From Candidatus Spechtbacteria bacterium (GTDB lineage Bacteria; Patescibacteriota; Minisyncoccia; Spechtbacterales; JACPHP01): DNA of 64,000 bases. The first letter of the stretch is position 1; each line of letters begins with the position of its first letter. Shown in pieces: positions 1-63,558 of the stretch. The notes under the pieces were generated by a model that made no database searches, was not told the DNA's origin, and saw only the letters and a program-made list of their open reading frames with translations. The position numbers were made by a program, and so were the translations under genes. Where the stretch lies: contig JACPHP010000013.1 in assembly GCA_016188605.1 (NCBI GenBank), forward strand, positions 2,846-66,845, read 5' to 3'.

Positions 1-2877
1 GTGACCCGTTTTGTAATCAACCACAATCACATCGTAGCCGTTCGGCTGAATTTCTAACTTATCTAGTTTACCCGTCAGGCGAATTATATCGCTTAGCGGT
101 ATAGAAATAGAACGTTCGTTCTCGGTGTTTTTGTTCCACGCGCCTCTATACTCTTCGTAGTATTTATCGAGCGTTTCCTCACCTCTAGCTTTGGCAGACT
201 GATAATCATGTTCATTAAGAAGTTCTGTTGCAAGGGCAAAATTAAATCGCTCAAGCAAGAATTCTTTAGGCGTGTTTGCATCTGTTTTTAAACGCTCAAA
301 AAAATCATGAAGTCCCGCGTGAATTGCCGTGCCATACATTTGCTGTTTGCTTGGCGCGTGCGGCACGCGAAGTAAATTGATATAAAAATATTTCCATGGA
401 CATTCAAGATAGTTATTAAAAGCTGTTACGGGTAAGCCGCGTTTTGTAAATAATTCAGCAACGAATTCGCGCTCTTGCAGTGGCGGCGTGGTTGCGATAG
501 ATGATGAAAAGAATAACGCTGGGTTTTGTTGTGCCTCAAGCTCGTATGCCTCGGTGCCACCGCGAGCAACAAGTTCACTTCTGATCTCGGATATAAAATT
601 GGTTGGGATTTGTTCTCTGCCAGCATCGTTTAATAAAGTACAGCTGATATGCGCGCCGTGGCGAGCGCGAGTAAGCGCGACAAAGAAAAGACGGCGCTCG
701 TCTTCATATTTGTCTATTTTGGGGTCAGTATCTATTAAAGATGGCCGAGGAGGGTCTGACCCTCCTTTTAGGAGGGTCAGACCCTCCTCGGACGCTGTTA
801 TTAGTTGAGGCAAGCGAAACAGACGTGGCTTTACCCGCCCACCCCATTTTGAGTCCGCCGCATTTGGCACAAAAACATAATCAAACTCAAGGCCTTTCGC
901 GCCATGAACGCTCATCACGCGCACAGCTCGCAGCGATGCTTTAAATGAGCTAGTCTTTATTTTAATGTTATGCTTTTCTACAAGATCGAGATGCTGTAGA
1001 AAATCCGCAAGATTCGCTTTACGCGAAGTCCCACCGCTGCTGGGATGAGATGAAAGAAAATTCTTCAATTCACGAAAAAGCGCGTGAATACCCGCCATCA
1101 TTCGCGGGTCATCGCCATTCTGTTTTACTATATCCAAAAATTTTCCTTCGCGGACAATGCGTTCGAAAAGCACCAGCGCGTTTTCGCTCGCCAAATCCTG
1201 TCTTATACCCGAAAGTAAGGAGTAGGCATGAAAAATAGCCGGCGAATTTTCAAAATGCAGTTTTTTATGCACCTGCGTAGCGCCCATTAGCTCTATAACT
1301 GTCGGTTTTACGTCGTCGGTCTTTTTTTTCGAATCTAAGTTATCCACATAGGGTATCCCGAGCACCCCATGTCTATGGTGCGCATATTCTATTTTGTTGC
1401 GATAAGCAAAAAGACGATATATATCAATTGGCGGAATGCCAAGCGTATCAATATGTAATACTGGGAGAAGCTTTTCGTCACTTCCAAAATCAACCGCGTA
1501 GCGCATGATGCTAAGTATTTTTTTAACTTGCGCGTCTTCCAGCATGTCGTGCTGTGATTCCCAAACATAAGGTATGCCTAGCTTTGCAAAAATGGAAGTC
1601 ACGGGAACAGCGCTTTCGTGCTCGCGCACGAGAACCGCAATTTCGCGCGGATCAACGCCGTTTGCAATTAACTCCTCAATTTTTTTGCCGATAAAATAGT
1701 TTTCTGACTGGGTATCAGCGAATTCCCAAAACTCAATCGGTTTTTTAGGTTCATACCTAGGGCCTCCGGGAGGCCCTAGGTATGAACCTTCTCTGTTCGC
1801 ATACAAAGCATCGTTTACTTCGGGGAGAATGTTGCTGATTCTGCTTTGGTTTTGCTTTATTAAATCCATTGCGCCGTCGAGTATTGGCTGTGATGAGCGA
1901 TAGTTCTGATGTAGCGTAATCAGCTTTGCGCCACTAAAGCGTTTATGAAAGTACAGAAAGTTAGCAAGCGTCGCGCCTTGAAAGCGAAAAATTGCCTGCT
2001 TCTCATCCCCCACCACAAAAAGATTTGGCGCTTCATTTTCAGAACATAGCAATGCCAGCACATTATTCTGGCCGTTGTTTGTGTCCTGATGTTCATCTAC
2101 TAGAATATAGTCGTATGCTTCCGAAACACGCATGCGGAAGTTCTCGTCGTTTTGCAGTTTCTTTACCACAAACAAAATCATATCGTTATAGTCGTAACGT
2201 TTTTGCTGTGCTAATTCCTGCTGATAGCGCTCATATACAACCACGAGTTCCCTATTTTTATTGATAAACTTTTCCTGATCTTGATATTTTCCCTTCATCT
2301 TGCCTTCATGTGCGCCTTTTTCGTGGTACAAGTCATCAATTTGTAAAAACGCGTTATGTTCTTTTTCAACAAGCTCGCTAAGTGCGGCTGGCGTGACTCC
2401 TTCGCGTTTTAACGTGCTGATTTCGGCGAGCGCGGATTTGATGTAAAAATATGGGTCGCCGAATGGGCGCAGCAGCGAGAGGGGTGTGTTGTCGAAAATT
2501 TGCTCAAGCAATTGTACTTGCTCAACCTCGCTTACGTTTTCCGCGGTGCCAACTTGCGGAAAATCTTCCGGATATCGCTGGATAAGCGCGTTGCAAAAAC
2601 TGTGAAATGTTAAAACCGTCACGTAATATCCTTGCGTGCCAATGAGCTCGCTCAAACGCTTACGCATGGCAGAAACACCCGCTTCACTGAATGTAAGCGC
2701 GAGAATTCTTTGCGGCGCAATTTTTTTCTGGCGCAAAATATTGGCGATACGAAGAGCCAATATTTGTGTTTTGCCAGTCCCCGGCCCCGCAATAACCATA
2801 ACCGGGCCGTCGAGCGTGTCTACGGCCTGCTTTTGCTCAGGATTTAACTTTTGATAGAGGGTATCGAAAGAGGACAT
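1..2877 (-). CDS. ATP-dependent DNA helicase, UvrD/PcrA family (C-terminus runs off the window start)
   Basis: Minus-strand translation gives the Walker A sequence AGPGTGKT near the N-terminus (about 2790), the DEHQDTN (DExx) box, and motif VI EDERRLFFVALTRAR (about 660-730). The reading frame stays open to position 1. No complete ORF is listed because the gene leaves the window. Confidence 0.85.
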   Translation of the reverse strand, partial: MSSFDTLYQKLNPEQKQAVDTLDGPVMVIAGPGTGKTQILALRIANILRQKKIAPQRILALTFSEAGVSAMRKRLSELIGTQGYYVTVLTFHSFCNALIQRYPEDFPQVGTAENVSEVEQVQLLEQIFDNTPLSLLRPFGDPYFYIKSALAEISTLKREGVTPAALSELVEKEHNAFLQIDDLYHEKGAHEGKMKGKYQDQEKFINKNRELVVVYERYQQELAQQKRYDYNDMILFVVKKLQNDENFRMRVSEAYDYILVDEHQDTNNGQNNVLALLCSENEAPNLFVVGDEKQAIFRFQGATLANFLYFHKRFSGAKLITLHQNYRSSQPILDGAMDLIKQNQSRISNILPEVNDALYANREGSYLGPPGGPRYEPKKPIEFWEFADTQSENYFIGKKIEELIANGVDPREIAVLVREHESAVPVTSIFAKLGIPYVWESQHDMLEDAQVKKILSIMRYAVDFGSDEKLLPVLHIDTLGIPPIDIYRLFAYRNKIEYAHHRHGVLGIPYVDNLDSKKKTDDVKPTVIELMGATQVHKKLHFENSPAIFHAYSLLSGIRQDLASENALVLFERIVREGKFLDIVKQNGDDPRMMAGIHALFRELKNFLSSHPSSGGTSRKANLADFLQHLDLVEKHNIKIKTSSFKASLRAVRVMSVHGAKGLEFDYVFVPNAADSKWGGRVKPRLFRLPQLITASEEGLTLLKGGSDPPRPSLIDTDPKIDKYEDERRLFFVALTRARHGAHISCTLLNDAGREQIPTNFISEIRSELVARGGTEAYELEAQQNPALFFSSSIATTPPLQEREFVAELFTKRGLPVTAFNNYLECPWKYFYINLLRVPHAPSKQQMYGTAIHAGLHDFFERLKTDANTPKEFLLERFNFALATELLNEHDYQSAKARGEETLDKYYEEYRGAWNKNTENERSISIPLSDIIRLTGKLDKLEIQPNGYDVIVVDYKTGH
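748..794. repeat. Perfect GC-rich palindrome CCGAGGAGGGTCTGACCCTCC-TTTTA-GGAGGGTCAGACCCTCCTCGG inside the helicase CDS (in frame)
   Basis: Read directly. The minus-strand frame stays open through it, encoding EEGLTLLKGGSDPPRP. The same GGAGGGTCAGACCCTCC unit forms the recR/rplU terminator. Confidence 0.9.
1747..1787. repeat. Perfect 41-bp palindrome GGTTCATACCTAGGGCCTCC|GGGAGGCCCTAGGTATGAACC inside the helicase CDS (in frame)
   Basis: Read directly; encodes YLGPPGGPRYEP. It shares the CCTAGG/GGAGG modules with the palindromes at 12052-12075 and 63520-63558. Confidence 0.9.
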
Positions 2878-2990: not shown

Positions 2991-3385
2991 CTCGGCTTAT
3001 AAGCCTTCATCACTCGAACAACAATTTTCGCCCCGTTTTCTTTCATCCAGCGGTAAATATCTTTTTTAAGTTCTTTCTGGTCATATCCAAGGCATACCAC
3101 GTCTGGTTTGAGGCGTTTTAGCGCAAGATACTCCCCCGTTTCCTTGTCTCCGAGCACCGCCCTATCAACGAGATGATGTGCCGCAACGCGACTGCGGCGT
3201 TGGCGTTCATTTAGCTGAGATGTTTTGCCTTTTAATTGAAGCGCTATTTCATCTCTTCCTACAATAACAACAATCTCATCGCCGTATGCTCGCGCCTGTT
3301 GTAAAAAATGTTCGTGCCCTAAATGTAGGCCGTCAAAAATACCAAAAACCACTACTCTCTTTTTTAATTTATTATTTTGTTCCAT
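2960..3385 (-). CDS. HxGH-type nucleotidyltransferase (cytidylyltransferase / FAD-synthetase-like family)
   Basis: N-terminal VVVFGIFDGLHLGHEHF matches the (T/H)xGH nucleotidyltransferase signature seen in RibF N-domains and TagD-like cytidylyltransferases. Product is 141 aa. Confidence 0.5.
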   Translation of the reverse strand: MEQNNKLKKRVVVFGIFDGLHLGHEHFLQQARAYGDEIVVIVGRDEIALQLKGKTSQLNERQRRSRVAAHHLVDRAVLGDKETGEYLALKRLKPDVVCLGYDQKELKKDIYRWMKENGAKIVVRVMKAYKPREYHTSIINE

Positions 3386-4428: not shown

Positions 4429-5994
4429 TTAACACTTGCCACAAAGTTCTTGCAATTCCGGAATGATGTGTTCGTCAAGCTCACCGAACACTGTGTCTAT
4501 AAATCGTGTTATGAATCCACCGCCCACCGCGCGATGATCAAAAGTAATGGGAATTGTCGCCCAACCATCTCTGTCAATCTCGCCAAGATCTACTTGCAGA
4601 GAAACATCCTTTGTTAGAAGCGAATAACCAGACCGCTGACGAACCTTCGAGCGACGCGCGGGAGGAATCAGCGTCTTTAATCCTCCGATATTATTAAAAA
4701 TAAAAGTAAATCCTTTTTGCTCCATTAAAGTAAAGGTGCGATCCTGCGACTTTCGCTGAAGAGTAGCAGTCGCGCGAGCAAGATCAACAAGAGAAAGTGT
4801 GTTTGCCTGACGCACTGTCAAAATTACGAGCTCATCTCGTGGCGTATTAAACGCGATGCCGAGATTTATATTCATGCTTCGCACAAACACCAACTTACCT
4901 TTTTCATCGGTATCTATATATCCATTCAAAAACGCGGCGAACTCGTCTCGCGCAAGCACTCGAACAAGCGCGGCAACAAAAGGAAACGCAAGCTGAAGTT
5001 TCACTCCGACCCTTTTTTCAAATTTTTGTCCATACCATTGCCGAAACGAAGTAAGAATGGATACATCGTGATCTTTTTCATCTTGACCAGTTGGTTTTTT
5101 CCAACCCTCCTCAAGATTTCGCGCGATGGCTTGTTGCACAGGCGAAAGAGGAATTATTTTTGTTTCCGCGCCATTGCTGACAGCGGGAGTTGTGGAAGGA
5201 GCAGGGGTAGTAGGAGTTGGTAAAATTTGCTTATCAAAAACAAGGAATTTTTCAACATCTGCGGGAAGAATTATTCCATCGGGACCTGTTCCCGCTATTC
5301 CCGCAGCATCAAGATCAATGCCGCGTTCTCGCGCAAGCGCACGCGCTGCTGGGCTTGCCCTGAGCTCTTTATTGTCGAAGGGGCTTGCCTTGATAGCCAC
5401 ATTTGATGGAACAACCGACATTTTCGATTCTACATTTTGCGTAGCAAGAATAGCAGAAGAAACTTCACGCACTAATTGTTGTGTATCCGTTACATGGCGC
5501 TCATACGCCTCAACCTGTTCTTTTCCAATTCTTCCCGTGGAGTCAACGCCAACGATTTTATAAACAGCTGCCGGGTCGATATTGCGCGCGCGCATCATTT
5601 GCCAGGCAAGAGGAGTTATTTTATAAGGCATATCAATTGTTTCTTCTGGCTCAATAGACGCGCTATTGGACAAAATTGAACGGCCGATAGACAACACCGG
5701 CTCATCTTCAATATAACCAAGAACGGTGCGATAAAACGTTATGCCGCCGCTCTGTTCTTGCAGATCGCTAGTTACCTGAAATTCACCGCCGTCAGTGTAA
5801 ATAATTTCTACCAAAACGCCTAATATTTTTGCTTTCAGCGTTACTTCTGCTTTTTCCGTTTGAATTACTACAAGATCATCGCCAATTTTTATCGTTTCGC
5901 CTTGTTTGCGCAGCCATTGAATAACGGACATTTCCAAAGTTCCGGGATAAGAACCTCCCGTGTCTTCGGTTGATACGCGTATTGGGTGGCGCAT
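4429..5994 (-). CDS. Dihydrolipoamide acyltransferase, E2 component of a 2-oxoacid dehydrogenase complex
   Basis: N-terminal lipoyl domain (VIQTEKAEVTLKA), two peripheral-subunit-binding domains (ASPAARALARERGIDLD; TPLAWQMMRARNIDPAAV), Pro/Thr linker, and catalytic domain with TFDHRAVGGG (DHR-x-G). Confidence 0.85.
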   Translation of the reverse strand: MRHPIRVSTEDTGGSYPGTLEMSVIQWLRKQGETIKIGDDLVVIQTEKAEVTLKAKILGVLVEIIYTDGGEFQVTSDLQEQSGGITFYRTVLGYIEDEPVLSIGRSILSNSASIEPEETIDMPYKITPLAWQMMRARNIDPAAVYKIVGVDSTGRIGKEQVEAYERHVTDTQQLVREVSSAILATQNVESKMSVVPSNVAIKASPFDNKELRASPAARALARERGIDLDAAGIAGTGPDGIILPADVEKFLVFDKQILPTPTTPAPSTTPAVSNGAETKIIPLSPVQQAIARNLEEGWKKPTGQDEKDHDVSILTSFRQWYGQKFEKRVGVKLQLAFPFVAALVRVLARDEFAAFLNGYIDTDEKGKLVFVRSMNINLGIAFNTPRDELVILTVRQANTLSLVDLARATATLQRKSQDRTFTLMEQKGFTFIFNNIGGLKTLIPPARRSKVRQRSGYSLLTKDVSLQVDLGEIDRDGWATIPITFDHRAVGGGFITRFIDTVFGELDEHIIPELQELCGKC

Positions 5995-8477: not shown

Positions 8478-8590
8478 TGTAAAAAATTTCAACGATTTAA
8501 AAATGAATACAGAATTTAGAATACAGAATACAGGAAAACGTCGTGTTTAGTCCCTATATTCGGTATTCTGTATTCATTATTCAAAACAAG
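8478..8590. repeat. Word-based imperfect palindrome (word GAATACAGAATAC)
   Basis: GAATACAGAATTTAGAATACAGAATACAGG ... CCCTATATTCGGTATTCTGTATTCATTATTC. Same word as 44461-44570, 17941-18005 and the in-CDS repeat at 47811-47850. Confidence 0.8.
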
Positions 8591-12035: not shown

Positions 12036-12175
12036 AATTATTATCTCCTTTACTAGGGAGTCCCGGCCTCCCTAGTTAGACTAGTTAGACTTAACTTACT
12101 TATTCTATTCTTATCATACGAAATGCATAGAAAATTAAAAGTCCCCTAGCACAATTGCAAGGAGACTTTTTCTTT

Positions 12176-13885: not shown

Positions 13886-16600
13886 ATGCCAAAAGACACT
13901 CAGTCAGACAAACTTCCCCCGCAAAGTATTGAAGCAGAGCAGTCGGTTTTGGGCTGTTTAATGATTGATCGCGACGCGATATACAAAGTTTCCGATGCTT
14001 TGTTTGCCGATGATTTCTATCGCGGCACGCATCGCGGTATTTATTCTGCCATGGTTGGGTTATATGAGCGGCGAGAACCGATTGATATTGTCAGTCTTTC
14101 TCAACGTCTCAAAGAAGAAAATCGGCTAGAGGAAATCGGCGGGCACAGCTATCTTGCCGAACTGATTAATCGCGTGCCCACCGCGACTCACGTTGTGCAT
14201 TATGCAAATATCGTACGCCAAAAGCGCGTTTTGCGCGATTTAATTACCGCGGCATACGACATAGGCCAGCTTGGCTATCGTGAGGGCGATAATATTGACG
14301 AGCTGCTGGATGAAGCGGAAAAAAGAATTTTCCAAATTTCGCAGCACAGTCTTTCACAAACGTTTGTGCCGTTTAAGCAAGAATTAGAATCGGCATTTAA
14401 CCGCATTGACCAGCTTAATAATTATGACGGCACTTTGCGCGGTATGCCAACCGGTTTTCATGATCTTGATAATATACTCGCGGGACTGCAAAAATCTGAT
14501 CTCATTATTCTTGCTGCGCGCCCCAGCCGAGGAAAAAGTTCCCTCGCGCTTGATATTGCGCGCCAAGCGGCGTTACAGGCCAAGCAACCCGTCGGCTTGT
14601 TTAGCTTGGAAATGTCAAAAGACCAGCTAGTTGACCGTATGCTCGCGTCGCAGGGTTCTGTAGATCTTTGGCGTATTCGCACGGGCAAACTTTCTTCACA
14701 AGGAGAATACAATGATTTTACAAAATTGCAACATGCTCTGGATACTCTTTCGCAAGCACCAATTTTTATTGACGACGCGGCAAGCGCCAGTATGCTGCAA
14801 ATTCGTTCTATGTCGCGCAGGTTGCAGGCAGAGCGAGGACTCGGGCTGATTATTGTTGACTATTTGCAACTTATTCAACCACGCAATCCCAGCGACCCGG
14901 TAGTGCAACAGGTTACCGAAATTTCGCGTTCCTTGAAAGGACTGGCACGCGAGCTAAACGTGCCCGTGCTAGCGCTGTCGCAGCTGTCGCGCGCTGTAGA
15001 ACAAAGAGGCGGTTCCCCTCGCCTTTCGGATTTGAGAGATTCTGGATGTCTTGCTGGAGATATGCTTATTACACGCGCAGATACCGGAGAACGAGTTTAT
15101 ATCAAAGAGCTTGTCGGACAAAAAGATATTCCTGTTTTTACTCTCAACCAAGATCATAGGATTATTTCCACAAAAATAGAAAAAGTCTTTTCAAATGGCG
15201 TTAAAGAGATCTTTGAACTTAAAACCAAAACCGGACGAACTATTAAGGCTTCGTCTAATCACAAATTCTTTACGCTTCACGGCTGGCAGAGAATTGATGA
15301 ACTTGAACCAGGCGCTAGAATTGCTTTACCGCGCGCTTTAGAAATAAAAAAATCAAGCGCAGACCTTTCAAGAAACGAACTTACTCTACTTCCTCACCTC
15401 ATTGGCGATGGATGCATTTTACCGCGCCAACCTATGCACTATACAAGTGCCGATTGGGAGAACATACAGACCGTCGCGCAAGCTGCTGCAAATCTTTTTG
15501 GCATTTCGCCCCGCATAGTAAGGCAAAAAAATTGGTGGCATGTATATCTACCATCACCTTATCGTCTTACACGGGGCAAATATCACCCAATTACTTTATG
15601 GTACAAAAAGTTAGGGTTGGAGAGAGTGCGTTCCTACAATAAACAGATTCCTGTCGCGCTTTTCAATGCTTCGCCGGAGCAGATTTGTCTATTCCTCCAT
15701 CATTTATGGGCAACGGATGGAAATATTTCATGGAAAAAAATTGCAGGGAGAAAGCCGACTGCGGCAATTTATTACGCAACTTCCAGCAAACAACTTGCGC
15801 AAGATATTCAGCACCTTCTTTTGCGTATTGGGATTTGGAGCTCGTTAAGAAAAGTGTCTCAACATGATTATAGGTCAATGTATCATATTATTATTCAAAG
15901 CGCTCCCATACAACTCAAATTCCTTAAAACAGTAGGATGCGCCGGAGAACGCGGAAAAATAATTCCAAAACTTATTTCGGCATTACGCGCGATTTCACCT
16001 AATACAAATACCGACACTATCCCTAATGAAATTTGGGATATGCTAGTGGAACCTGAAAAAGAAAAAATTGGCATAAGCTGGCGTGGCGTGGCAAGGGGTA
16101 TGAACGTCGCCTATAACGGTTCGGCGCTTTTTGCAAGCGGCATGTCGCGGGAACGTTTGACGCGTGTCGCAACCGTCTTGTCCAGTAACGAGTTGCGCCA
16201 TTTTGCCGAATCTGATATTTATTGGGACGAGATTACTTCTATAACTCCATGTGGAAAAGAAGAGGTTTATGACGCAACTATTCCTGGTACGCATAATTTC
16301 GTAGCAAACGATTTTATTGTGCATAACAGCATAGAACAAGATGCCGACGTAGTTTTGTTTATTCATCGTGACGATAAAGACCAAGAGGACGCGGAGCGCA
16401 ATAACATCGCTGATATTATTGTCGCCAAACACCGCAATGGTCCGACAGGAAAAATTCAGCTTTACTTCGATGATAGAGTGGTTAGTTTTAAGAATCTAAC
16501 GAGCCAAGCCAGCGCGCCGCAAGAGCCAGTTGCTATGCCCTCGCCAACACCCAAAGAGACTTCGAATGAAGAGATTAGTTTAGAGGATTTTGAGATATAA
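13886..16600 (+). CDS. dnaB: Replicative DNA helicase DnaB interrupted by an intein
   Basis: DnaB N-domain (QSIEAEQSVLG) is followed by the RecA-like domain (ARPSRGKSS Walker A, IIVDYLQL). At the conserved LSDLRDSG site an insertion beginning CLAGDMLI and ending VHN|SIEQDADV (C-extein) interrupts the gene. The 904-aa product is about twice normal DnaB length. Confidence 0.9.
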   Translation: MPKDTQSDKLPPQSIEAEQSVLGCLMIDRDAIYKVSDALFADDFYRGTHRGIYSAMVGLYERREPIDIVSLSQRLKEENRLEEIGGHSYLAELINRVPTATHVVHYANIVRQKRVLRDLITAAYDIGQLGYREGDNIDELLDEAEKRIFQISQHSLSQTFVPFKQELESAFNRIDQLNNYDGTLRGMPTGFHDLDNILAGLQKSDLIILAARPSRGKSSLALDIARQAALQAKQPVGLFSLEMSKDQLVDRMLASQGSVDLWRIRTGKLSSQGEYNDFTKLQHALDTLSQAPIFIDDAASASMLQIRSMSRRLQAERGLGLIIVDYLQLIQPRNPSDPVVQQVTEISRSLKGLARELNVPVLALSQLSRAVEQRGGSPRLSDLRDSGCLAGDMLITRADTGERVYIKELVGQKDIPVFTLNQDHRIISTKIEKVFSNGVKEIFELKTKTGRTIKASSNHKFFTLHGWQRIDELEPGARIALPRALEIKKSSADLSRNELTLLPHLIGDGCILPRQPMHYTSADWENIQTVAQAAANLFGISPRIVRQKNWWHVYLPSPYRLTRGKYHPITLWYKKLGLERVRSYNKQIPVALFNASPEQICLFLHHLWATDGNISWKKIAGRKPTAAIYYATSSKQLAQDIQHLLLRIGIWSSLRKVSQHDYRSMYHIIIQSAPIQLKFLKTVGCAGERGKIIPKLISALRAISPNTNTDTIPNEIWDMLVEPEKEKIGISWRGVARGMNVAYNGSALFASGMSRERLTRVATVLSSNELRHFAESDIYWDEITSITPCGKEEVYDATIPGTHNFVANDFIVHNSIEQDADVVLFIHRDDKDQEDAERNNIADIIVAKHRNGPTGKIQLYFDDRVVSFKNLTSQASAPQEPVAMPSPTPKETSNEEISLEDFEI
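15047..16327 (+). mobile_element. Intein (about 427 aa) with LAGLIDADG homing-endonuclease domain inside dnaB
   Basis: N-terminal Cys (CLAGD), internal LLPHLIGDGC (LAGLIDADG-like), C-terminal HN followed by Ser of the extein. The intein is in frame, 1281 nt. Confidence 0.8.
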
Positions 16601-16720
16601 TCAATCTAAAATCTTAAATGGCAAATCTCAAAACTGAATCTTAAAACTCAAATCTTCGCTAGTAGTTTTACGATTTACGTTTTAGTTTTGAGATTTTAGT
16701 TTTGAGTTTTAACATTTTTT
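16601..16720. repeat. AT-rich word palindrome, CAAATCTCAAAT family
   Basis: Left arm A-rich (AATCTTAAATGGCAAATCTCAAAACTGAATCTTAAAACTCAAATCTTC). Right arm is its T-rich complement. Confidence 0.8.
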
Positions 16721-16723
16721 ACA

Positions 16724-17335
16724 ATGTTTCCAAAACCAATCCAACAGCTCATAGAGCAATTAAGCGAACTTCCCGGCGTAGGGCCGCGGCAAGCGGCTCG
16801 TTTTGCGTTTTTTCTGATGAAGGACGAACAACGCCTGACATCATTACAGAACTCATTGCGGACACTACAAAACGAGATTGCTTTATGCGCTAACTGTTAT
16901 CTTCCTCACGAAAGAAATGATCAAAATCTTTGCGCAATCTGCTTGCATCCCAAACGCAACGCCTCAACTATTTGTGTGGTAGAAAAAGAAAGTGATGCAA
17001 TGCGCGTAGAAAAAGCGGGGGTGTATAATGGCATTTACTATATTCTGGGCGGAATGTTAACCCCGATGCGACAGGATAATAACATCAAAGAGCGCGTATC
17101 TGGCCTACGCAAAAAATTTGAACAACGTGGAGTAGGCGGCAAGGAGCTCATACTCGCGCTCAATCCTACTCGCGAGGGCATGTTTACATCTCTGTATATT
17201 GAAGAGGTATTAAAAAAATTGCCCGACTACGGCAATCTTCGCGTTACGCGGCTTGCTCGCGGCCTTGCGACTGGATCAGAGCTGGAATATGTGGACGAAG
17301 AAACATTGCGCAATGCGCTAGAGGGAAGGAAGTAA
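16724..17335 (+). CDS. recR: Recombination protein RecR
   Basis: HhH motif LPGVGPRQAARFAF, C4 zinc finger CANCYLPHERNDQNLCAIC, and a Toprim region. Confidence 0.9.
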   Translation: MFPKPIQQLIEQLSELPGVGPRQAARFAFFLMKDEQRLTSLQNSLRTLQNEIALCANCYLPHERNDQNLCAICLHPKRNASTICVVEKESDAMRVEKAGVYNGIYYILGGMLTPMRQDNNIKERVSGLRKKFEQRGVGGKELILALNPTREGMFTSLYIEEVLKKLPDYGNLRVTRLARGLATGSELEYVDEETLRNALEGRK

Positions 17336-17340
17336 GCAAA

Positions 17341-17370
17341 AAAGGAGGGTCAGACCCTCCTTTTTTGCTT
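17341..17370. terminator. Bidirectional terminator built from a GGAGGGTCAGACCCTCC palindrome
   Basis: AAAAAGGAGGGTCAGACCCTCCTTTTTTGC lies between convergent recR and rplU. The same palindrome core occurs in frame inside the helicase gene at 748-794. Confidence 0.7.
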
Positions 17371-27566: not shown

Positions 27567-27690
27567 CAAAATCTCAAAATGCAAATCTCAAATCGCAAAA
27601 CTACAACTCAAATCGCAAAACTACGAACTGTGGCGATTTTAGATTTGCGATTTCGATTTGAGATTTAACATTTTAGATTTGAGATTAAAA
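27561..27690. repeat. AT-rich word palindrome, CAAATCTCAAAT family (atpF/atpH spacer)
   Basis: Read directly. Confidence 0.85.
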
Positions 27691-30880: not shown

Positions 30881-32397
<1,517 letters not shown>

Positions 32398-32399
32398 CT

Positions 32400-32520
32400 A
32401 TCTCAAAACGCAAATCTTAAATCGCAAAACTAAAACTCAAATCTGAAAACTACGGCGAAGATTTTAGATTTGCGATTCAGATTTGAGATTTGCCATTTGA
32501 GATTTTAGCTTTATTTATGC
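32400..32520. repeat. AT-rich word palindrome; direct copy A (5' of atpC)
   Basis: About 96% identical over about 108 bp to 32755-32880 (4 substitutions). Confidence 0.9.
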
Positions 32521-35589: not shown

Positions 35590-35700
35590 GTTATTGCCAA
35601 CCGTTCCATTGCCCCTTCATTGCTCCATTGTTTCATTGTCTTATGGTTACACAAACAATGAATCAATGGAGCAATGGAGCAATGAAGCAATGTAAGCTGG
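35590..35700. repeat. Word-based palindrome (word CATTGCTCCATTG)
   Basis: GTTCCATTGCCCCTTCATTGCTCCATTGTTTCATTG ... CAATGAATCAATGGAGCAATGGAGCAATGAAGC. Lies in the divergent lysS / greA-like promoter region. Confidence 0.8.
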
Positions 35701-38941: not shown

Positions 38942-39100
38942 ATCTTAAATCACAAATTTCAAATCTAAATCTTAAATGTAAAATCTTCGACGTCAGATTA
39001 AAAGTTTTTCCGCCAGAGGCGCCTGCCCGCCTCTGGCGGGGATCAGCCTTTGGCTGAGAAATTTGAGTTTCAGTTTTGCGATTTAAGATTTGATATTTTA
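38931..39100. repeat. Composite element: AT-word arms plus GC core (RC of CCGCCAGAGGCGGGCAGGCGCCTCTGGCGG and TCAGCCAAAGGCTGA); inverted near-identical copy of 48480-48600
   Basis: The central 100 bp match the reverse complement of 48480-48600 almost base for base. Lies between mrdA and mreB. Confidence 0.9.
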
Positions 39101-44460: not shown

Positions 44461-44570
44461 TCAAAAGTATACTCGCGAATATAAAAGAATACAGAATTGA
44501 GAATACGGAATACAGGAACCGCGTCCCTGTATTCTTTATTCTGTATTCTTTATTCTAATTCCCGCGTACT
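44461..44570. repeat. Word-based palindrome (word GAATACAGAAT), second locus
   Basis: GAATACAGAATTGAGAATACGGAATACAGGAACCGCGTCCCTGTATTCTTTATTCTGTATTCTTTATTC. Confidence 0.85.
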
Positions 44571-47278: not shown

Positions 47279-48433
47279 TCAATATATACCTTTTTGTTCG
47301 ATAAATTCTAAAGTCTCTCCTGCGCATCTTCCCCATGTAAAACGCATAGAATTTTCGCGAGCTTTCCTTTGCATATCTCCGTATAATATTTTATTTGACA
47401 TTATTTTCAGCAAAGATTCCGCGATACTTTCTGGCCTGGCAGGGTCGCAATATATCGCCCCCTCGCCTCCTATTTCTTGCAAAAAAGACGAGGCTATCAC
47501 GGGTATGCCATGGCTTTGCGCTTCCAAGATAGGCATGCCAAAGCCCTCATCGAATGAAGGGAAAAGCAAAATGTCAGAATTTTGATAAATTATTTCTTTT
47601 TCCTGATCAGTAATAAATCTATTGATATTAATAAGTGTCGCATTATTAAAAAGTTGGTCTTGCAAGCTTGAGGCAAACGTATCATTGCCTCGCGGGCCTA
47701 CGATGTTGATGGTAAAAGATATAGATGTTTTCTCGCGCAAAATATGAAACGCCTCGGTGATTCCCTTAATATTCTTCCTCTTATCCTTACGGCCGATAAA
47801 TAAGATGTTTTTAGCTCCTGTATTCTGTATTCTGTATTCTGTATTCTGTTGCATATTCATGCCATGATGAATTATCTTAATGGGCGTTTCTGTCGGGAAA
47901 AACTCCTCAATCCCCCTTTTTGTATGCTCCGAAATCGCAATTATTCCTTTTGCATTTTGAATAGTTTTTTTAGTAGTCCAACGCAAATACTGCCTTTGCA
48001 AGAATAAATACGCCCACGGAACTCGCTCCCATTCAACGCCATGGATGGTGGCAACGCCTGGAATCCCAACCGATGACCATCTGATTGGCAGTGGATGTGC
48101 TGGGCTAAAAAAAATATCTGGTTTTATTTTGTTAACAAGGCTTGGCAAAATTATTTGATGCCACATTGGCCGATATGGCGAATAAACAATTCTTGTATTC
48201 TGTGGCAGTTTCCCTAAGGTTTTAGAAACTTCCTGTAAATTATTACCCCCCTTCGCGCCGATTGACATTGGCGCTTCGAAGGGGTTATTCTCCTCTGCAG
48301 AGGAGAATAAAAAAAACTCGTGCTCGCGGGCGCTATCTAGCGCCAGCATATGAGTAATGAGCTGATAAGTATATTCTTCTACTCCGGTTCTCTGTGATTT
48401 CAGGGCTGAGGTGATGTCGATACCAATTTTCAT
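47279..48433 (-). CDS. Glycosyltransferase family 1 (GT4-type) containing an in-frame heptanucleotide tandem repeat
   Basis: EGFGMPILEAQSHGIPVIASS motif. Positions 47811-47850 carry four copies of TGTATTC, encoding QNTEYRIQNTG. Confidence 0.7.
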   Translation of the reverse strand: MKIGIDITSALKSQRTGVEEYTYQLITHMLALDSAREHEFFLFSSAEENNPFEAPMSIGAKGGNNLQEVSKTLGKLPQNTRIVYSPYRPMWHQIILPSLVNKIKPDIFFSPAHPLPIRWSSVGIPGVATIHGVEWERVPWAYLFLQRQYLRWTTKKTIQNAKGIIAISEHTKRGIEEFFPTETPIKIIHHGMNMQQNTEYRIQNTGAKNILFIGRKDKRKNIKGITEAFHILREKTSISFTINIVGPRGNDTFASSLQDQLFNNATLININRFITDQEKEIIYQNSDILLFPSFDEGFGMPILEAQSHGIPVIASSFLQEIGGEGAIYCDPARPESIAESLLKIMSNKILYGDMQRKARENSMRFTWGRCAGETLEFIEQKGIY

Positions 48434-48449
48434 AGCTGAATCTGATAAA

Positions 48450-48640
48450 TTATCTTATCTTAAAACGCAAATCTAAAATGGCAAAACTAAATCTCAAAAT
48501 TCTCAGCCAAAGGCTGATCCCCGCCAGAGGCGGGCAGGCGCCTCTGGCGGAAAAACTTTTAATCTGACGTCGAAGATTTTACATTTAAGATTTAGATTTG
48601 AGATTTGCCATTTGAGATTTAAGATAATAACTGATTCTAT
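48450..48640. repeat. Composite element (AT-word arms, TCAGCCAAAGGCTGA, core hairpin CCGCCAGAGGCG-GGCAG-GCGCCTCTGGCGG); 3' of the second mreB
   Basis: Read directly. Core is identical to 49716-49760 and to the reverse complement of 39010-39050. Confidence 0.9.
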
Positions 48641-49660: not shown

Positions 49661-49840
49661 AAATGTAAATCTCAAATGGCAAAACTAAAATCTGAATCGC
49701 AAATCTTCAGCCTGAGGCTGATCCCCGCCAGAGGCGGGCAGGCGCCTCTGGCGGAAAAATACCGTAGTTCGTAGTTTTTAGATTTGAGTTGTAGTTTTAC
49801 GTTTTGCGATTTGAGCTTTAAGATATAATATCAAAATAGT
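49661..49840. repeat. Composite element with the same GC core; 5' of the second mreB
   Basis: The core TCAGCCTGAGGCTGATCCCCGCCAGAGGCGGGCAGGCGCCTCTGGCGGAAAAA is shared with 48480-48600. Confidence 0.9.
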
Positions 49841-55395: not shown

Positions 55396-55887
55396 TTATC
55401 TACTATAAAACTCTATTACTGAATGAATATTAACCTCCATACCCGCCTCTTCAACTGCCGCACGACCAACCACCGTCCCCTCTTTCTTCTCTTTGTCTAA
55501 ACGAATCCATGTGGGGGCTTGATGTTTTTTGAGTCGCTCGTCTAAATCAATAAATATCCCCCTTTGCGTATGAGCAAGCCTTATACCCACCACATCGTTT
55601 ATTTTACTCTGATATGATGGTGTATTTAACACTTTACCATTTACGGTGATGTGCTTATGGCCAACCATCTGGCGGGCCATTGGGCGTGTCATCGCAAAAC
55701 CAAGACGATATACAACGCTATCTAGTCTCATTTCTAAAAGATTAAAAACGTCATCTGGCTTTTGCGCCTTCTTAAAATAGTTATGGAATTGGCGTTCGCG
55801 CAACCCATAGCCATTTCGCAGTTTCTGCTTTTCAGCAAACTGCTGGCCGTATTCTGATTTTTGTCGTCTTGCTCCGCCTTTTGGCAT
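55396..55887 (-). CDS. rpsD: 30S ribosomal protein S4 (short, no zinc finger)
   Basis: LRERQFHNYFKKA...LEMRLDSVVYRLGFA, followed by an S4 RNA-binding domain. Confidence 0.9.
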   Translation of the reverse strand: MPKGGARRQKSEYGQQFAEKQKLRNGYGLRERQFHNYFKKAQKPDDVFNLLEMRLDSVVYRLGFAMTRPMARQMVGHKHITVNGKVLNTPSYQSKINDVVGIRLAHTQRGIFIDLDERLKKHQAPTWIRLDKEKKEGTVVGRAAVEEAGMEVNIHSVIEFYSR

Positions 55888-55956
55888 AAAATATAAAATT
55901 TAAATCTCAACCCTTAAAGTAATTTTGAGTTTTGAGATTTGCATTTTGAGATTTAT

Positions 55957-56409: not shown

Positions 56410-56538
56410 AATTTATTATTTGCTAACTGCTGACCGTCTACCGCAAACCGCTTAACGACGATTGACAGTAACATGTGTACGGTTGTCGGTATGCGGTAGA
56501 CGGTATGCTGTCGTCAGTTAGCATTAGTCATTTTATTA
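56410..56538. repeat. ACCGAC/TACCGC-word palindrome (rpsK/rpsM spacer)
   Basis: GCTAACTGCTGACCGTCTACCGCAAACCGCTTAACGACG ... GTCGGTATGCGGTAGACGGTATGCTGTCGTCAGTTAGC. Confidence 0.8.
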
Positions 56539-63299: not shown

Positions 63300-63519
63300 A
63301 AAATTAGGACTTGCGCGTTTGGCGCATTTCGTTGTTGCGGGCTCCGTTCCTCGACGCCGTATACTATATACGGCTTACTCCAGTACTCACCCGCGCCTAG
63401 AACTGCACTCAAACGCGCAAGTCCGCAATATATACAAAAGAAAAATCCGCCCAAAGGCAGATTGGCTCCTTGTCTAATGATTATATCAGAAAAATGACCT
63501 TATTGCAATAGCTGTAGCC

Positions 63520-63558
63520 CTATCCTAGGGTCGTCAGACGACCCTAGGATAGGGCAGG
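63520..63558. repeat. Perfect palindrome GCCCTATCCTAGGGTCGTC|AGACGACCCTAGGATAGGGC
   Basis: 20-bp arms. Shares CCTAGG and GGGTC..GACCC modules with the palindromes at 748-794, 1747-1787, 12052-12075 and 17343-17363. Confidence 0.9.

Follow-up and report, generated by a model that had tools for sequence, protein, structure and literature searches.

The question raised by the left end of this stretch, a 64,000-nt (64-kb) segment of contig JACPHP010000013.1 from Candidatus Spechtbacteria bacterium (hereafter the window), is how a gene encoding a UvrD-type superfamily 1 (SF1) helicase fused to a PD-(D/E)XK nuclease came to contain two perfect palindromes within its reading frame. Both, referred to as palindromes 1 and 2 (Table 1), are probably mobile hairpin repeats of the repetitive extragenic palindromic (REP) type, or of its inverted doublet form (REPIN), which have been inserted into the helicase gene. 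We are more confident of this explanation for palindrome 1, a member of a hairpin family that is present in many copies and linked to a Y1 transposase, than for palindrome 2. The latter is built to the same design and sits in a loop where orthologous genes contain other palindromic repeats; we take it to represent a further class of such hairpins, with repeat status and mobility argued by analogy with the first.

Two palindromes in a helicase-nuclease gene

The helicase gene leaves the window at its left end, with the first 959 of its 1062 codons inside. Its product is 100% identical to P0001, a protein from the candidate phyla radiation (CPR; Patescibacteria) recorded as 'ATP-dependent helicase [Candidatus Spechtbacteria bacterium]', which contains the Pfam domains UvrD-helicase, UvrD_C and PDDEXK_1, and it keeps every invariant motif of the helicase and of the nuclease. 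The source is a metagenome-assembled genome, and chimeras can generate palindromes, so that an assembly or amplification artefact might be held responsible for inverted duplications in this gene. The chance of this is negligible, as three independent assemblies from different sequencing runs agree without a mismatch across some 3.5 kb in which both palindromes lie, each palindrome is shorter than one read, and the helicase open reading frame (ORF) stays intact.

Palindrome 1 (CCGAGGAGGGTCTGACCCTCCTTTTAGGAGGGTCAGACCCTCCTCGG) is exact over 47 nt, with a 22-bp perfect stem and a 3-nt loop, and its RNA has a minimum free energy (MFE) of -49.6 kcal/mol (z -10.4). An earlier, sequence-only reading of this DNA had recognized it as present and perfect and had placed it at 748-794, 3 nt above its true site. 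The unit GGAGGGTCWGACCCTCC is present in it as an inverted doublet, in which two nested hairpins of 19 nt each share the pattern AGGAGGGTC[T/A]GACCCTCCT. The centre bases of units A and B (T and A) are complementary, which identifies an inverted doublet and not a tandem duplication, and the two inverted units, separated by a 3-nt spacer, form a larger hairpin as in a REPIN. For the 17-mer of the unit, the window has 3 occurrences versus 0.04 expected. Two of the three frames through palindrome 1 are stop-free, the frame in use among them, and the encoded peptide SEEGLTLLKGGSDPPR corresponds to helicase residues 696–711, between motifs V and VI. This site is a variable loop in the orthologue alignment, and the signature peptides GGSDPP and EGLTLL are found only in P0001 among 120 homologues (0 of the other 119). 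The long insertions of P0004–P0006 in the same loop were considered as further palindromic elements and rejected, as their DNA is not palindromic; the loop is thus generally permissive.

Palindrome 2 is exact over 43 nt, with a 21-bp perfect stem around a 1-nt centre and an RNA MFE of -39.3 kcal/mol (z about -10). The perfect 41-bp palindrome previously proposed at 1747-1787 is exact as well, the 41-mer being the inner part of the 43-nt palindrome. One of its three frames is free of stops, and this is the frame in use. The encoded peptide EGSYLGPPGGPRYEP (residues 363–377, after motif IV) lies opposite a gap of 12 columns in all of the 25 orthologues aligned (41–47% identical), and 114 of 119 orthologues have just 2 residues opposite helicase residues 364–375, a gap of 10 residues. 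The palindrome 2 core occurs once in the window (0.00 expected), and palindrome 2 shares just a CCTAGGG module with the intergenic 63517 palindrome and with the hairpins of locus L068. Chance does not account for either palindrome.

The AlphaFold model of the helicase has a mean predicted local distance difference test (pLDDT) score of 81.5, falling below 50 at residues 364–375 and 696–721. These low-confidence segments are the palindrome-encoded residues, which lie between well-folded elements and are predicted to be disordered loops. The earlier proposal that both palindromes keep the helicase frame open and encode small loop insertions is supported, with a gap in the orthologues at palindrome 2 (114 of 119 sequences) and a variable loop at palindrome 1.

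Table 1. Positions of the helicase gene, the palindromes with their units, and related features in the window.
Feature	Position	Strand	Basis
UvrD-type SF1 helicase-PD-(D/E)XK nuclease fusion gene	1..2877	minus	open translation, Pfam, motifs
Palindrome 1, REPIN-like inverted doublet, two hairpin units, TTT spacer	745..791		stem, RNA MFE
Unit A of palindrome 1, AGGAGGGTCTGACCCTCCT	748..766		19-nt nested hairpin
Unit B of palindrome 1, AGGAGGGTCAGACCCTCCT	770..788		19-nt nested hairpin
Third lineage-specific helicase insertion, VLGIPYVDNLDSKKKTDD (aa 505–522)	1312..1365	minus	orthologue alignment, pLDDT<50
Palindrome 2, single perfect palindrome, core CCTAGGGCCTCC-G-GGAGGCCCTAGG	1747..1789		stem, RNA MFE
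Intergenic full-length hairpin of the palindrome 1 family, AAGCAAAAAAGGAGGGTCAGACCCTCCTTTTTTGCTT	17334..17370		perfect 18-bp stem
Intergenic 39-nt perfect palindrome, GTCAGAC centre, CCTAGGG module	63517..63555		sequence

A hairpin family linked to a Y1 transposase

A third copy of the palindrome 1 unit lies in the intergenic hairpin between the convergent genes recR and rplU, which has the shape of a bidirectional terminator (A-tract, GC hairpin, T-tract) and an MFE of -29 kcal/mol. Reuse of the unit in this hairpin had been noticed before at 17343-17363 and is confirmed, with the unit itself at 17344-17360. The outer arms of the hairpin (AAGCAAAA) match those of transposase-flanking hairpins in L050, L051, L057 and L066.

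When one genome per bacterial species was scanned (596 Gb), the 19-mer was found at 48 sites in these species-representative genomes versus about 4 by chance, the latter being our own arithmetic from the size of the collection under an assumed uniform base composition. In low-GC genomes, 19 of the 25 sites extend to longer perfect hairpins, often with A- and T-tracts, and the carriers are mostly CPR bacteria (Saccharibacteria, Campbellbacteria, Nomurabacteria) with 2–5 exact copies per genome. The palindrome 1 unit represents a family across CPR genomes, the members of which are mostly terminator-like intergenic hairpins. The matches in high-GC genomes were rejected as members, being ordinary coding sequence with no extended palindrome. 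The observation that the unit always lies at the centre of a variable palindrome was discarded too, as it is the trivial outcome of searching with a palindromic pattern.

The unit A 19-mer flanks Y1_Tnp genes in four loci (L023, L036, L050 and L077), at a distance of no more than about 50 nt from either end of the gene, and in L023 and L036 the pair of units brackets a gene of 240 amino acids. More generally, the same perfect hairpin stands upstream and downstream of the transposase gene in 51 of the 68 metagenome loci that have sequence on both sides of it. Different transposase lineages have different hairpin sequences (GTAGGGTCWGACCCTAC, GCGGGGTC.., GGAGGGACWGTCCCTCC, GAAGTCSGACTTC, CAAGGT-NNN-ACCTTG and others), and inverted doublets, the arrangement seen in palindrome 1, flank the transposase genes in L089, L095, L108 and L114.

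The transposase family has at least 518 members, some of which are labelled Spechtbacterales and Paceibacterota. The protein of about 240 amino acids matches Pfam Y1_Tnp (IS200-like) with 27.8 bits (cut-off 23), and its HxH and Y...N motifs are invariant. Its best and only NCBIfam match is the REP-associated tyrosine transposase (E about 1e-11 to 1e-12). In a fold search with a predicted model of pLDDT 70, the best match in the PDB is 4ER8, a REP-associated tyrosine transposase (RAYT) of Escherichia coli with its REP hairpin (E 8e-5; template modelling score 0.53 on the target), followed by the transposases of IS200, IS608 and ISDra2, which would place the family among such enzymes. Searching PDB sequences with the transposase profile returned just ISDra2, weakly (E 0.18).

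An in-frame internal copy of its own hairpin is present in 40 of the 68 transposase genes, usually at about residues 55–75 and reading GSDP or GTVP, or at about residue 167 instead in two lineages (L118 and L120); examples are found at 2298-2326 in L052, 3164-3184 in L053, 3165-3195 in L063, 1189-1231 in L068 and 5172-5200 in L130. The internal hairpin co-varies with the flanking copies. Beside the transposase gene of L057, an 852-aa ORF (4526-5769) contains five in-frame copies of AAGGAGGGACWGTCCCTCCTT, each reading EGGTVPPL within Pro/Glu-rich linkers, and other large ORFs hold one copy. Copies lying in frame within coding sequence are common in this system.

The transposase contig L131 starts and ends inside the hairpin repeat (1-27 and 2082-2108), and many other contigs with these genes are just about 1–2 kb long. 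This suggests that the hairpin repeats break metagenome assemblies, and CPR genome bins may under-report them.

The insertion of REP/REPIN-type repeats could proceed as follows. The transposase would bind the hairpin in single-stranded DNA, as the IS200/IS605 and RAYT enzymes do, cut beside it and reinsert it without target duplication. An insertion in an important gene would survive only if it is in frame, stop-free and in a tolerant surface loop, and such filtering would leave short Gly/Pro/Ser-rich loop extensions. The earlier proposal of a small mobile palindromic element of which only in-frame insertions survive agrees with the gaps in the orthologues, the transposase-linked repeat family, the stop-free frames and the hits in orthologous genes described below; that the insertion is recent had the perfection of the palindromes as its sole basis. 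Target-site duplications were also looked for, and no direct repeats flank either palindrome, as is expected for Y1 transposases.

Several observations weigh against an insertion of this kind. The NCBIfam match of the transposase scores 42–47 bits, below the cut-off of 80, and no homologue of the transposase is found within the 64-kb window. In the window unit, GGAG stands in place of the GTAG tag of classical REPs. Neither 47 nor 43 nt is divisible by three, so that what was inserted must be slightly different from the palindrome now visible. The nearest helicase orthologue, at 43–47% identity, is too distant to serve as an empty site by which the boundaries and age of the insertions could be fixed. 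No second palindrome 2 core is present in the window or in the 135 loci compared (up to 3 mismatches in each), and palindrome 2 is absent from the hairpins beside about 80 transposase loci and from viral contigs. As it is found nowhere else, its family is unproven and the case for its mobility is one of analogy only.

This uniqueness in the window, the 135 loci and the viral contigs also fits an origin in place, above all of palindrome 2, in which template switching or snap-back synthesis made an inverted copy of part of the gene and perfected a quasi-palindrome with no mobile element involved. Such an event agrees with the perfect symmetry of palindrome 2. The YEP encoded by its 3' outer arm (TATGAACCT) may correspond to the residues [HY][PE] that follow the gap in the orthologues, although the alignment is poorly constrained here; on this reading, the 5' outer arm could have been copied in inverted form from ancestral sequence. 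An origin in place is nevertheless unlikely, as the gap of 10–12 residues in nearly all orthologues means that most of both arms is extra sequence, and nothing in the gene could have been the source of the GC-rich 25-nt core. Moreover, the palindrome 2 loop holds real repeated elements in the orthologues of L136 and L139, and the palindrome 1 unit is clearly multi-copy and transposase-linked.

In one low-GC uncultured bacterium, the unit lies inside a longer shared repeat, ggaggtATACCTAGGAGGGTCAGACCCTCCTAGGTAT (L011 2489, L033 3747 and L049 5324), the outer arm of which (ATACCTAGG) is identical to the outer arm of palindrome 2.

Repeated insertions in the same helicase loops

Three other CPR helicases carry repeats in loops corresponding to those of the window gene. 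The orthologue of L139 (P0016) contains three in-frame hairpins with the stem CAAGGT/ACCTTG (2092-2128, 2488-2524 and 2941-2963), of which one is in the palindrome 2 loop, one in the palindrome 1 loop and one, a hairpin doublet, in the loop of residues 505–522 of the window protein. The orthologue of L136 (P0036) contains two near-identical in-frame copies of a 120-nt element (1363-1482 and 3019-3138), which has a hairpin at its centre and terminal inverted repeats of 14 bp. One of the copies occupies the palindrome 2 loop, the other immediately precedes the nuclease motif VNVVDYKTG, and a decayed copy of this element is found in the palindrome 2 loop of the L137 orthologue (P0107), near residue 391. 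Judging by these sequences, orthologous CPR helicases are hit independently by different palindromic repeats in the same loops. In the window protein itself, residues 505–522 form a third lineage-specific insertion, opposite which 105 of 119 orthologues have 4 residues; it is non-palindromic today and may be a decayed element, for which the evidence is weak. A further lineage-specific insertion, SGGTS (residues 614–618), is non-palindromic and lies in a low-confidence loop.

The repeated hits on the same three loops in different lineages may also be read as a sign of a selected function, with the hairpins kept for pausing or stabilizing the helicase mRNA, as sites bound by the transposase or by some other hairpin-binding protein, or for an effect of the loop peptides on helicase activity. 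The palindromes are perfect despite their coding location, and the co-variation of internal and flanking hairpins in the transposase loci suggests constraint or homogenization; Di Nocera et al. have argued that repair genes do not have their surplus of REPs by accident (PMC3733652). The insertions are, however, lineage-specific and missing from most orthologues, and their peptides, which lie in predicted disordered loops, differ wholly between lineages, so that a selected function is improbable as the explanation; a mobile origin would in any case be compatible with it. The hairpins in the helicase gene are not terminators, as neither is followed by a U-tract on the sense strand, and a role of this type within the gene was rejected. 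The sequences that come next on this strand are CCAUCUUUAA after palindrome 1 and AAAAAACCGA after palindrome 2, and a terminator scan reports palindrome 2 on the antisense strand only. The recR/rplU copy has the form of an intrinsic terminator, a GC-rich hairpin with a U-tract after it on the transcribed strand, and palindromes 1 and 2 do not; these two should not terminate transcription of the helicase gene, and might slow ribosomes.

The DNA uptake sequences of Neisseria pair as terminators and are enriched in genome-maintenance genes. A motif of this kind has been considered for the palindrome 1 unit, which doubles as a terminator-like hairpin between recR and rplU and sits in a repair gene. 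It is highly improbable, since three units in 64 kb are far below the density of uptake sequences, the hairpin sequence follows the lineage of the transposase and not that of the host, and the unit brackets a transposase gene.

On the explanation by mobile hairpin repeats, a wider proposal can be made, which is tentative and has rather less than an even chance of being correct. CPR bacteria may carry an undescribed branch of REP-RAYT systems, in which the gene of a Y1 transposase of about 240 amino acids is bracketed by its own hairpin and nearly always has a co-varying in-frame copy of it inside, at two or more positions depending on the lineage. The hairpins would be portable bidirectional terminators that have also settled, time and again in independent lineages, in the same three loops of a helicase-nuclease of recombinational repair. 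The pattern of the internal hairpin suggests self-regulation or an unusual transposition geometry, and the repeated hits could reflect targeting of, or interplay with, the enzyme processing hairpin DNA rather than mere tolerance.

Besides palindromes 1 and 2, nearly all of the strong hairpins in the window (23, versus 2–6 in shuffled sequences) are intergenic. The 39-nt intergenic palindrome listed in Table 1, which had been located at 63520-63558 and starts 3 nt lower, is probably a related hairpin by its sequence, as GTC-W-GAC is the commonest centre among the transposase-flanking hairpins. A further perfect palindrome claimed at 12052-12075 turns out to have a stem of just 8 bp and a loop of 7 nt, and it lies upstream of a gene. 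The suggested kinship of all four palindromes through shared modules is weak. Rfam identifies three tRNAs in the window and gives no match at the palindromes. Among the viral contigs, none has the core of the 63517 palindrome and there is one match for the 19-mer.

Other repeats are present in the window. An intergenic repeat of about 130 nt with no Rfam match occurs three times in both orientations (38960-39090 as the reverse complement, 48470-48600 and 49675-49805), each time on the downstream side of a gene (two mreB-like, one murA-like), and contains a hairpin with a 12-bp stem (CCGCCAGAGGCG-N6-CGCCTCTGGCGG) and a smaller one (TCAGCC-N3-GGCTGA). Many intergenic spacers contain long imperfect inverted repeats of degenerate motifs with a period of about 7 nt (2888-2972, 8496-8584, 16598-16721, 27582-27681, 30893-30976, 32406-32477, 35615-35687, 44486-44556, 55886-55956 and 56426-56511), the motif differing between spacers (for example ACGAATN, AGAATAC, AAATCTC/AAAACTC, ACCGNNT and CATTGNT). 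A perfect AT-rich palindrome of 26 nt, TTATTCTCCTCTGCAGAGGAGAATAA, is found at 48285-48310 in a glycosyltransferase-like gene, where it reads FLFSSAEEN.

Relation to known repeats and meaning

The closest resemblance is to the REP/REPIN-RAYT systems, which share inverted doublets, the lack of target duplications, and the same hairpin flanking a Y1/HUH transposase gene (the REPtron arrangement), the last of these being found in other CPR genomes. REPs are short hairpin repeats located mainly between genes, on their downstream side, as are most members of the hairpin family across CPR genomes; in the window, one of the three units is intergenic. The sizes agree with the 20–40 nt or so of a REP unit, with units of 17–19 nt, a doublet of 47 nt and a palindrome 2 of 43 nt, all forming stable stem-loops. 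The CPR systems differ in their transposase, which has about 240 amino acids versus 165 in the 4ER8 chain, and in their hairpins, which are perfect palindromes with a single-base centre. The window unit has neither a GTAG nor a CGTC tag, its initial GGAG being a one-base variant of the tag; sister lineages of the transposase family have GTAGGGTCWGACCCTAC, and L036 holds the GGAG form and the GTAGGGTCWGACCCTAC form in one locus. Most CPR transposase genes also carry the third, in-frame copy of the hairpin, for which no description was found, and no paper pairing REP or RAYT with CPR was found in the literature searched.

REPs inserted in frame within known genes were described by Di Nocera et al. 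in 2013, more than half of them as dimers and often two per gene (PMC3733652). They are frequent in the genes for UvrA/B, UvrD/Rep helicase, RecBCD and Pol I, and the dimers encode 20–30 amino acids which the authors argue are located in flexible loops (PMC3733652). The gene in the window, with one dimer and one single repeat in a UvrD-type helicase-nuclease, resembles these cases. That study concerned other phyla and GTAG- or CGTC-tagged families, whereas the helicases compared here have, from lineage to lineage, different hairpin families in the same three loops.

The Rickettsia palindromic elements (RPEs) are likewise palindromic selfish DNA that has entered numerous unrelated genes of a reduced genome in frame, where they add a peptide judged compatible with the fold. 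RPEs have about 150 bp and a conserved encoded peptide, as opposed to the 43–47 nt found here, and no conserved palindrome-encoded peptide is common to other genes of the window, so that the likeness, which lies in the in-frame insertion, is one of analogy only. The 120-nt element of L136 is closer in size to an RPE. The TnpA proteins of IS200/IS605 (IS608 and ISDra2) have the HUH/Y1 fold that is predicted for the CPR transposase, which would share with them the recognition of subterminal hairpins in single-stranded DNA and the lack of target duplication. Their hairpins mark the termini of a complete insertion sequence, which is mobile as a whole, whereas the short hairpins described here are dispersed alone.

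SPRITE of Streptococcus pneumoniae is a terminator-like miniature inverted-repeat transposable element (MITE), a dispersed repeat shaped like a rho-independent terminator, and the recR/rplU copy of the unit resembles it in being terminator-shaped. A classical MITE has terminal inverted repeats and direct target-site duplications, and no such duplications flank the two palindromes.

The kind of insertion is thus already known, from REPs inside repair genes including UvrD/Rep (PMC3733652) and from the RPEs as the classic in-frame case. What differs is the CPR hosts, the larger and more distant transposase, the perfect palindromes with GGAG, the internal copy in the transposase gene and the repeated hits on the same loops. 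With the palindromes probably of REP/REPIN type, perfectly palindromic Gly/Pro-rich insertions in CPR proteins would be explained as footprints of mobile DNA and not as functional motifs, which bears on the annotation and structure prediction of these poorly known organisms. REP/RAYT-type systems would extend to streamlined episymbiont genomes of about 1 Mb, in which selfish repeats are not expected to persist. The helicases hit independently in the same loops provide a test case of tolerance versus targeting for the question, raised by Di Nocera et al. in 2013, of why hairpin repeats build up in DNA-repair genes, and the in-frame hairpin within the transposase gene offers a direct test of a role in self-regulation.

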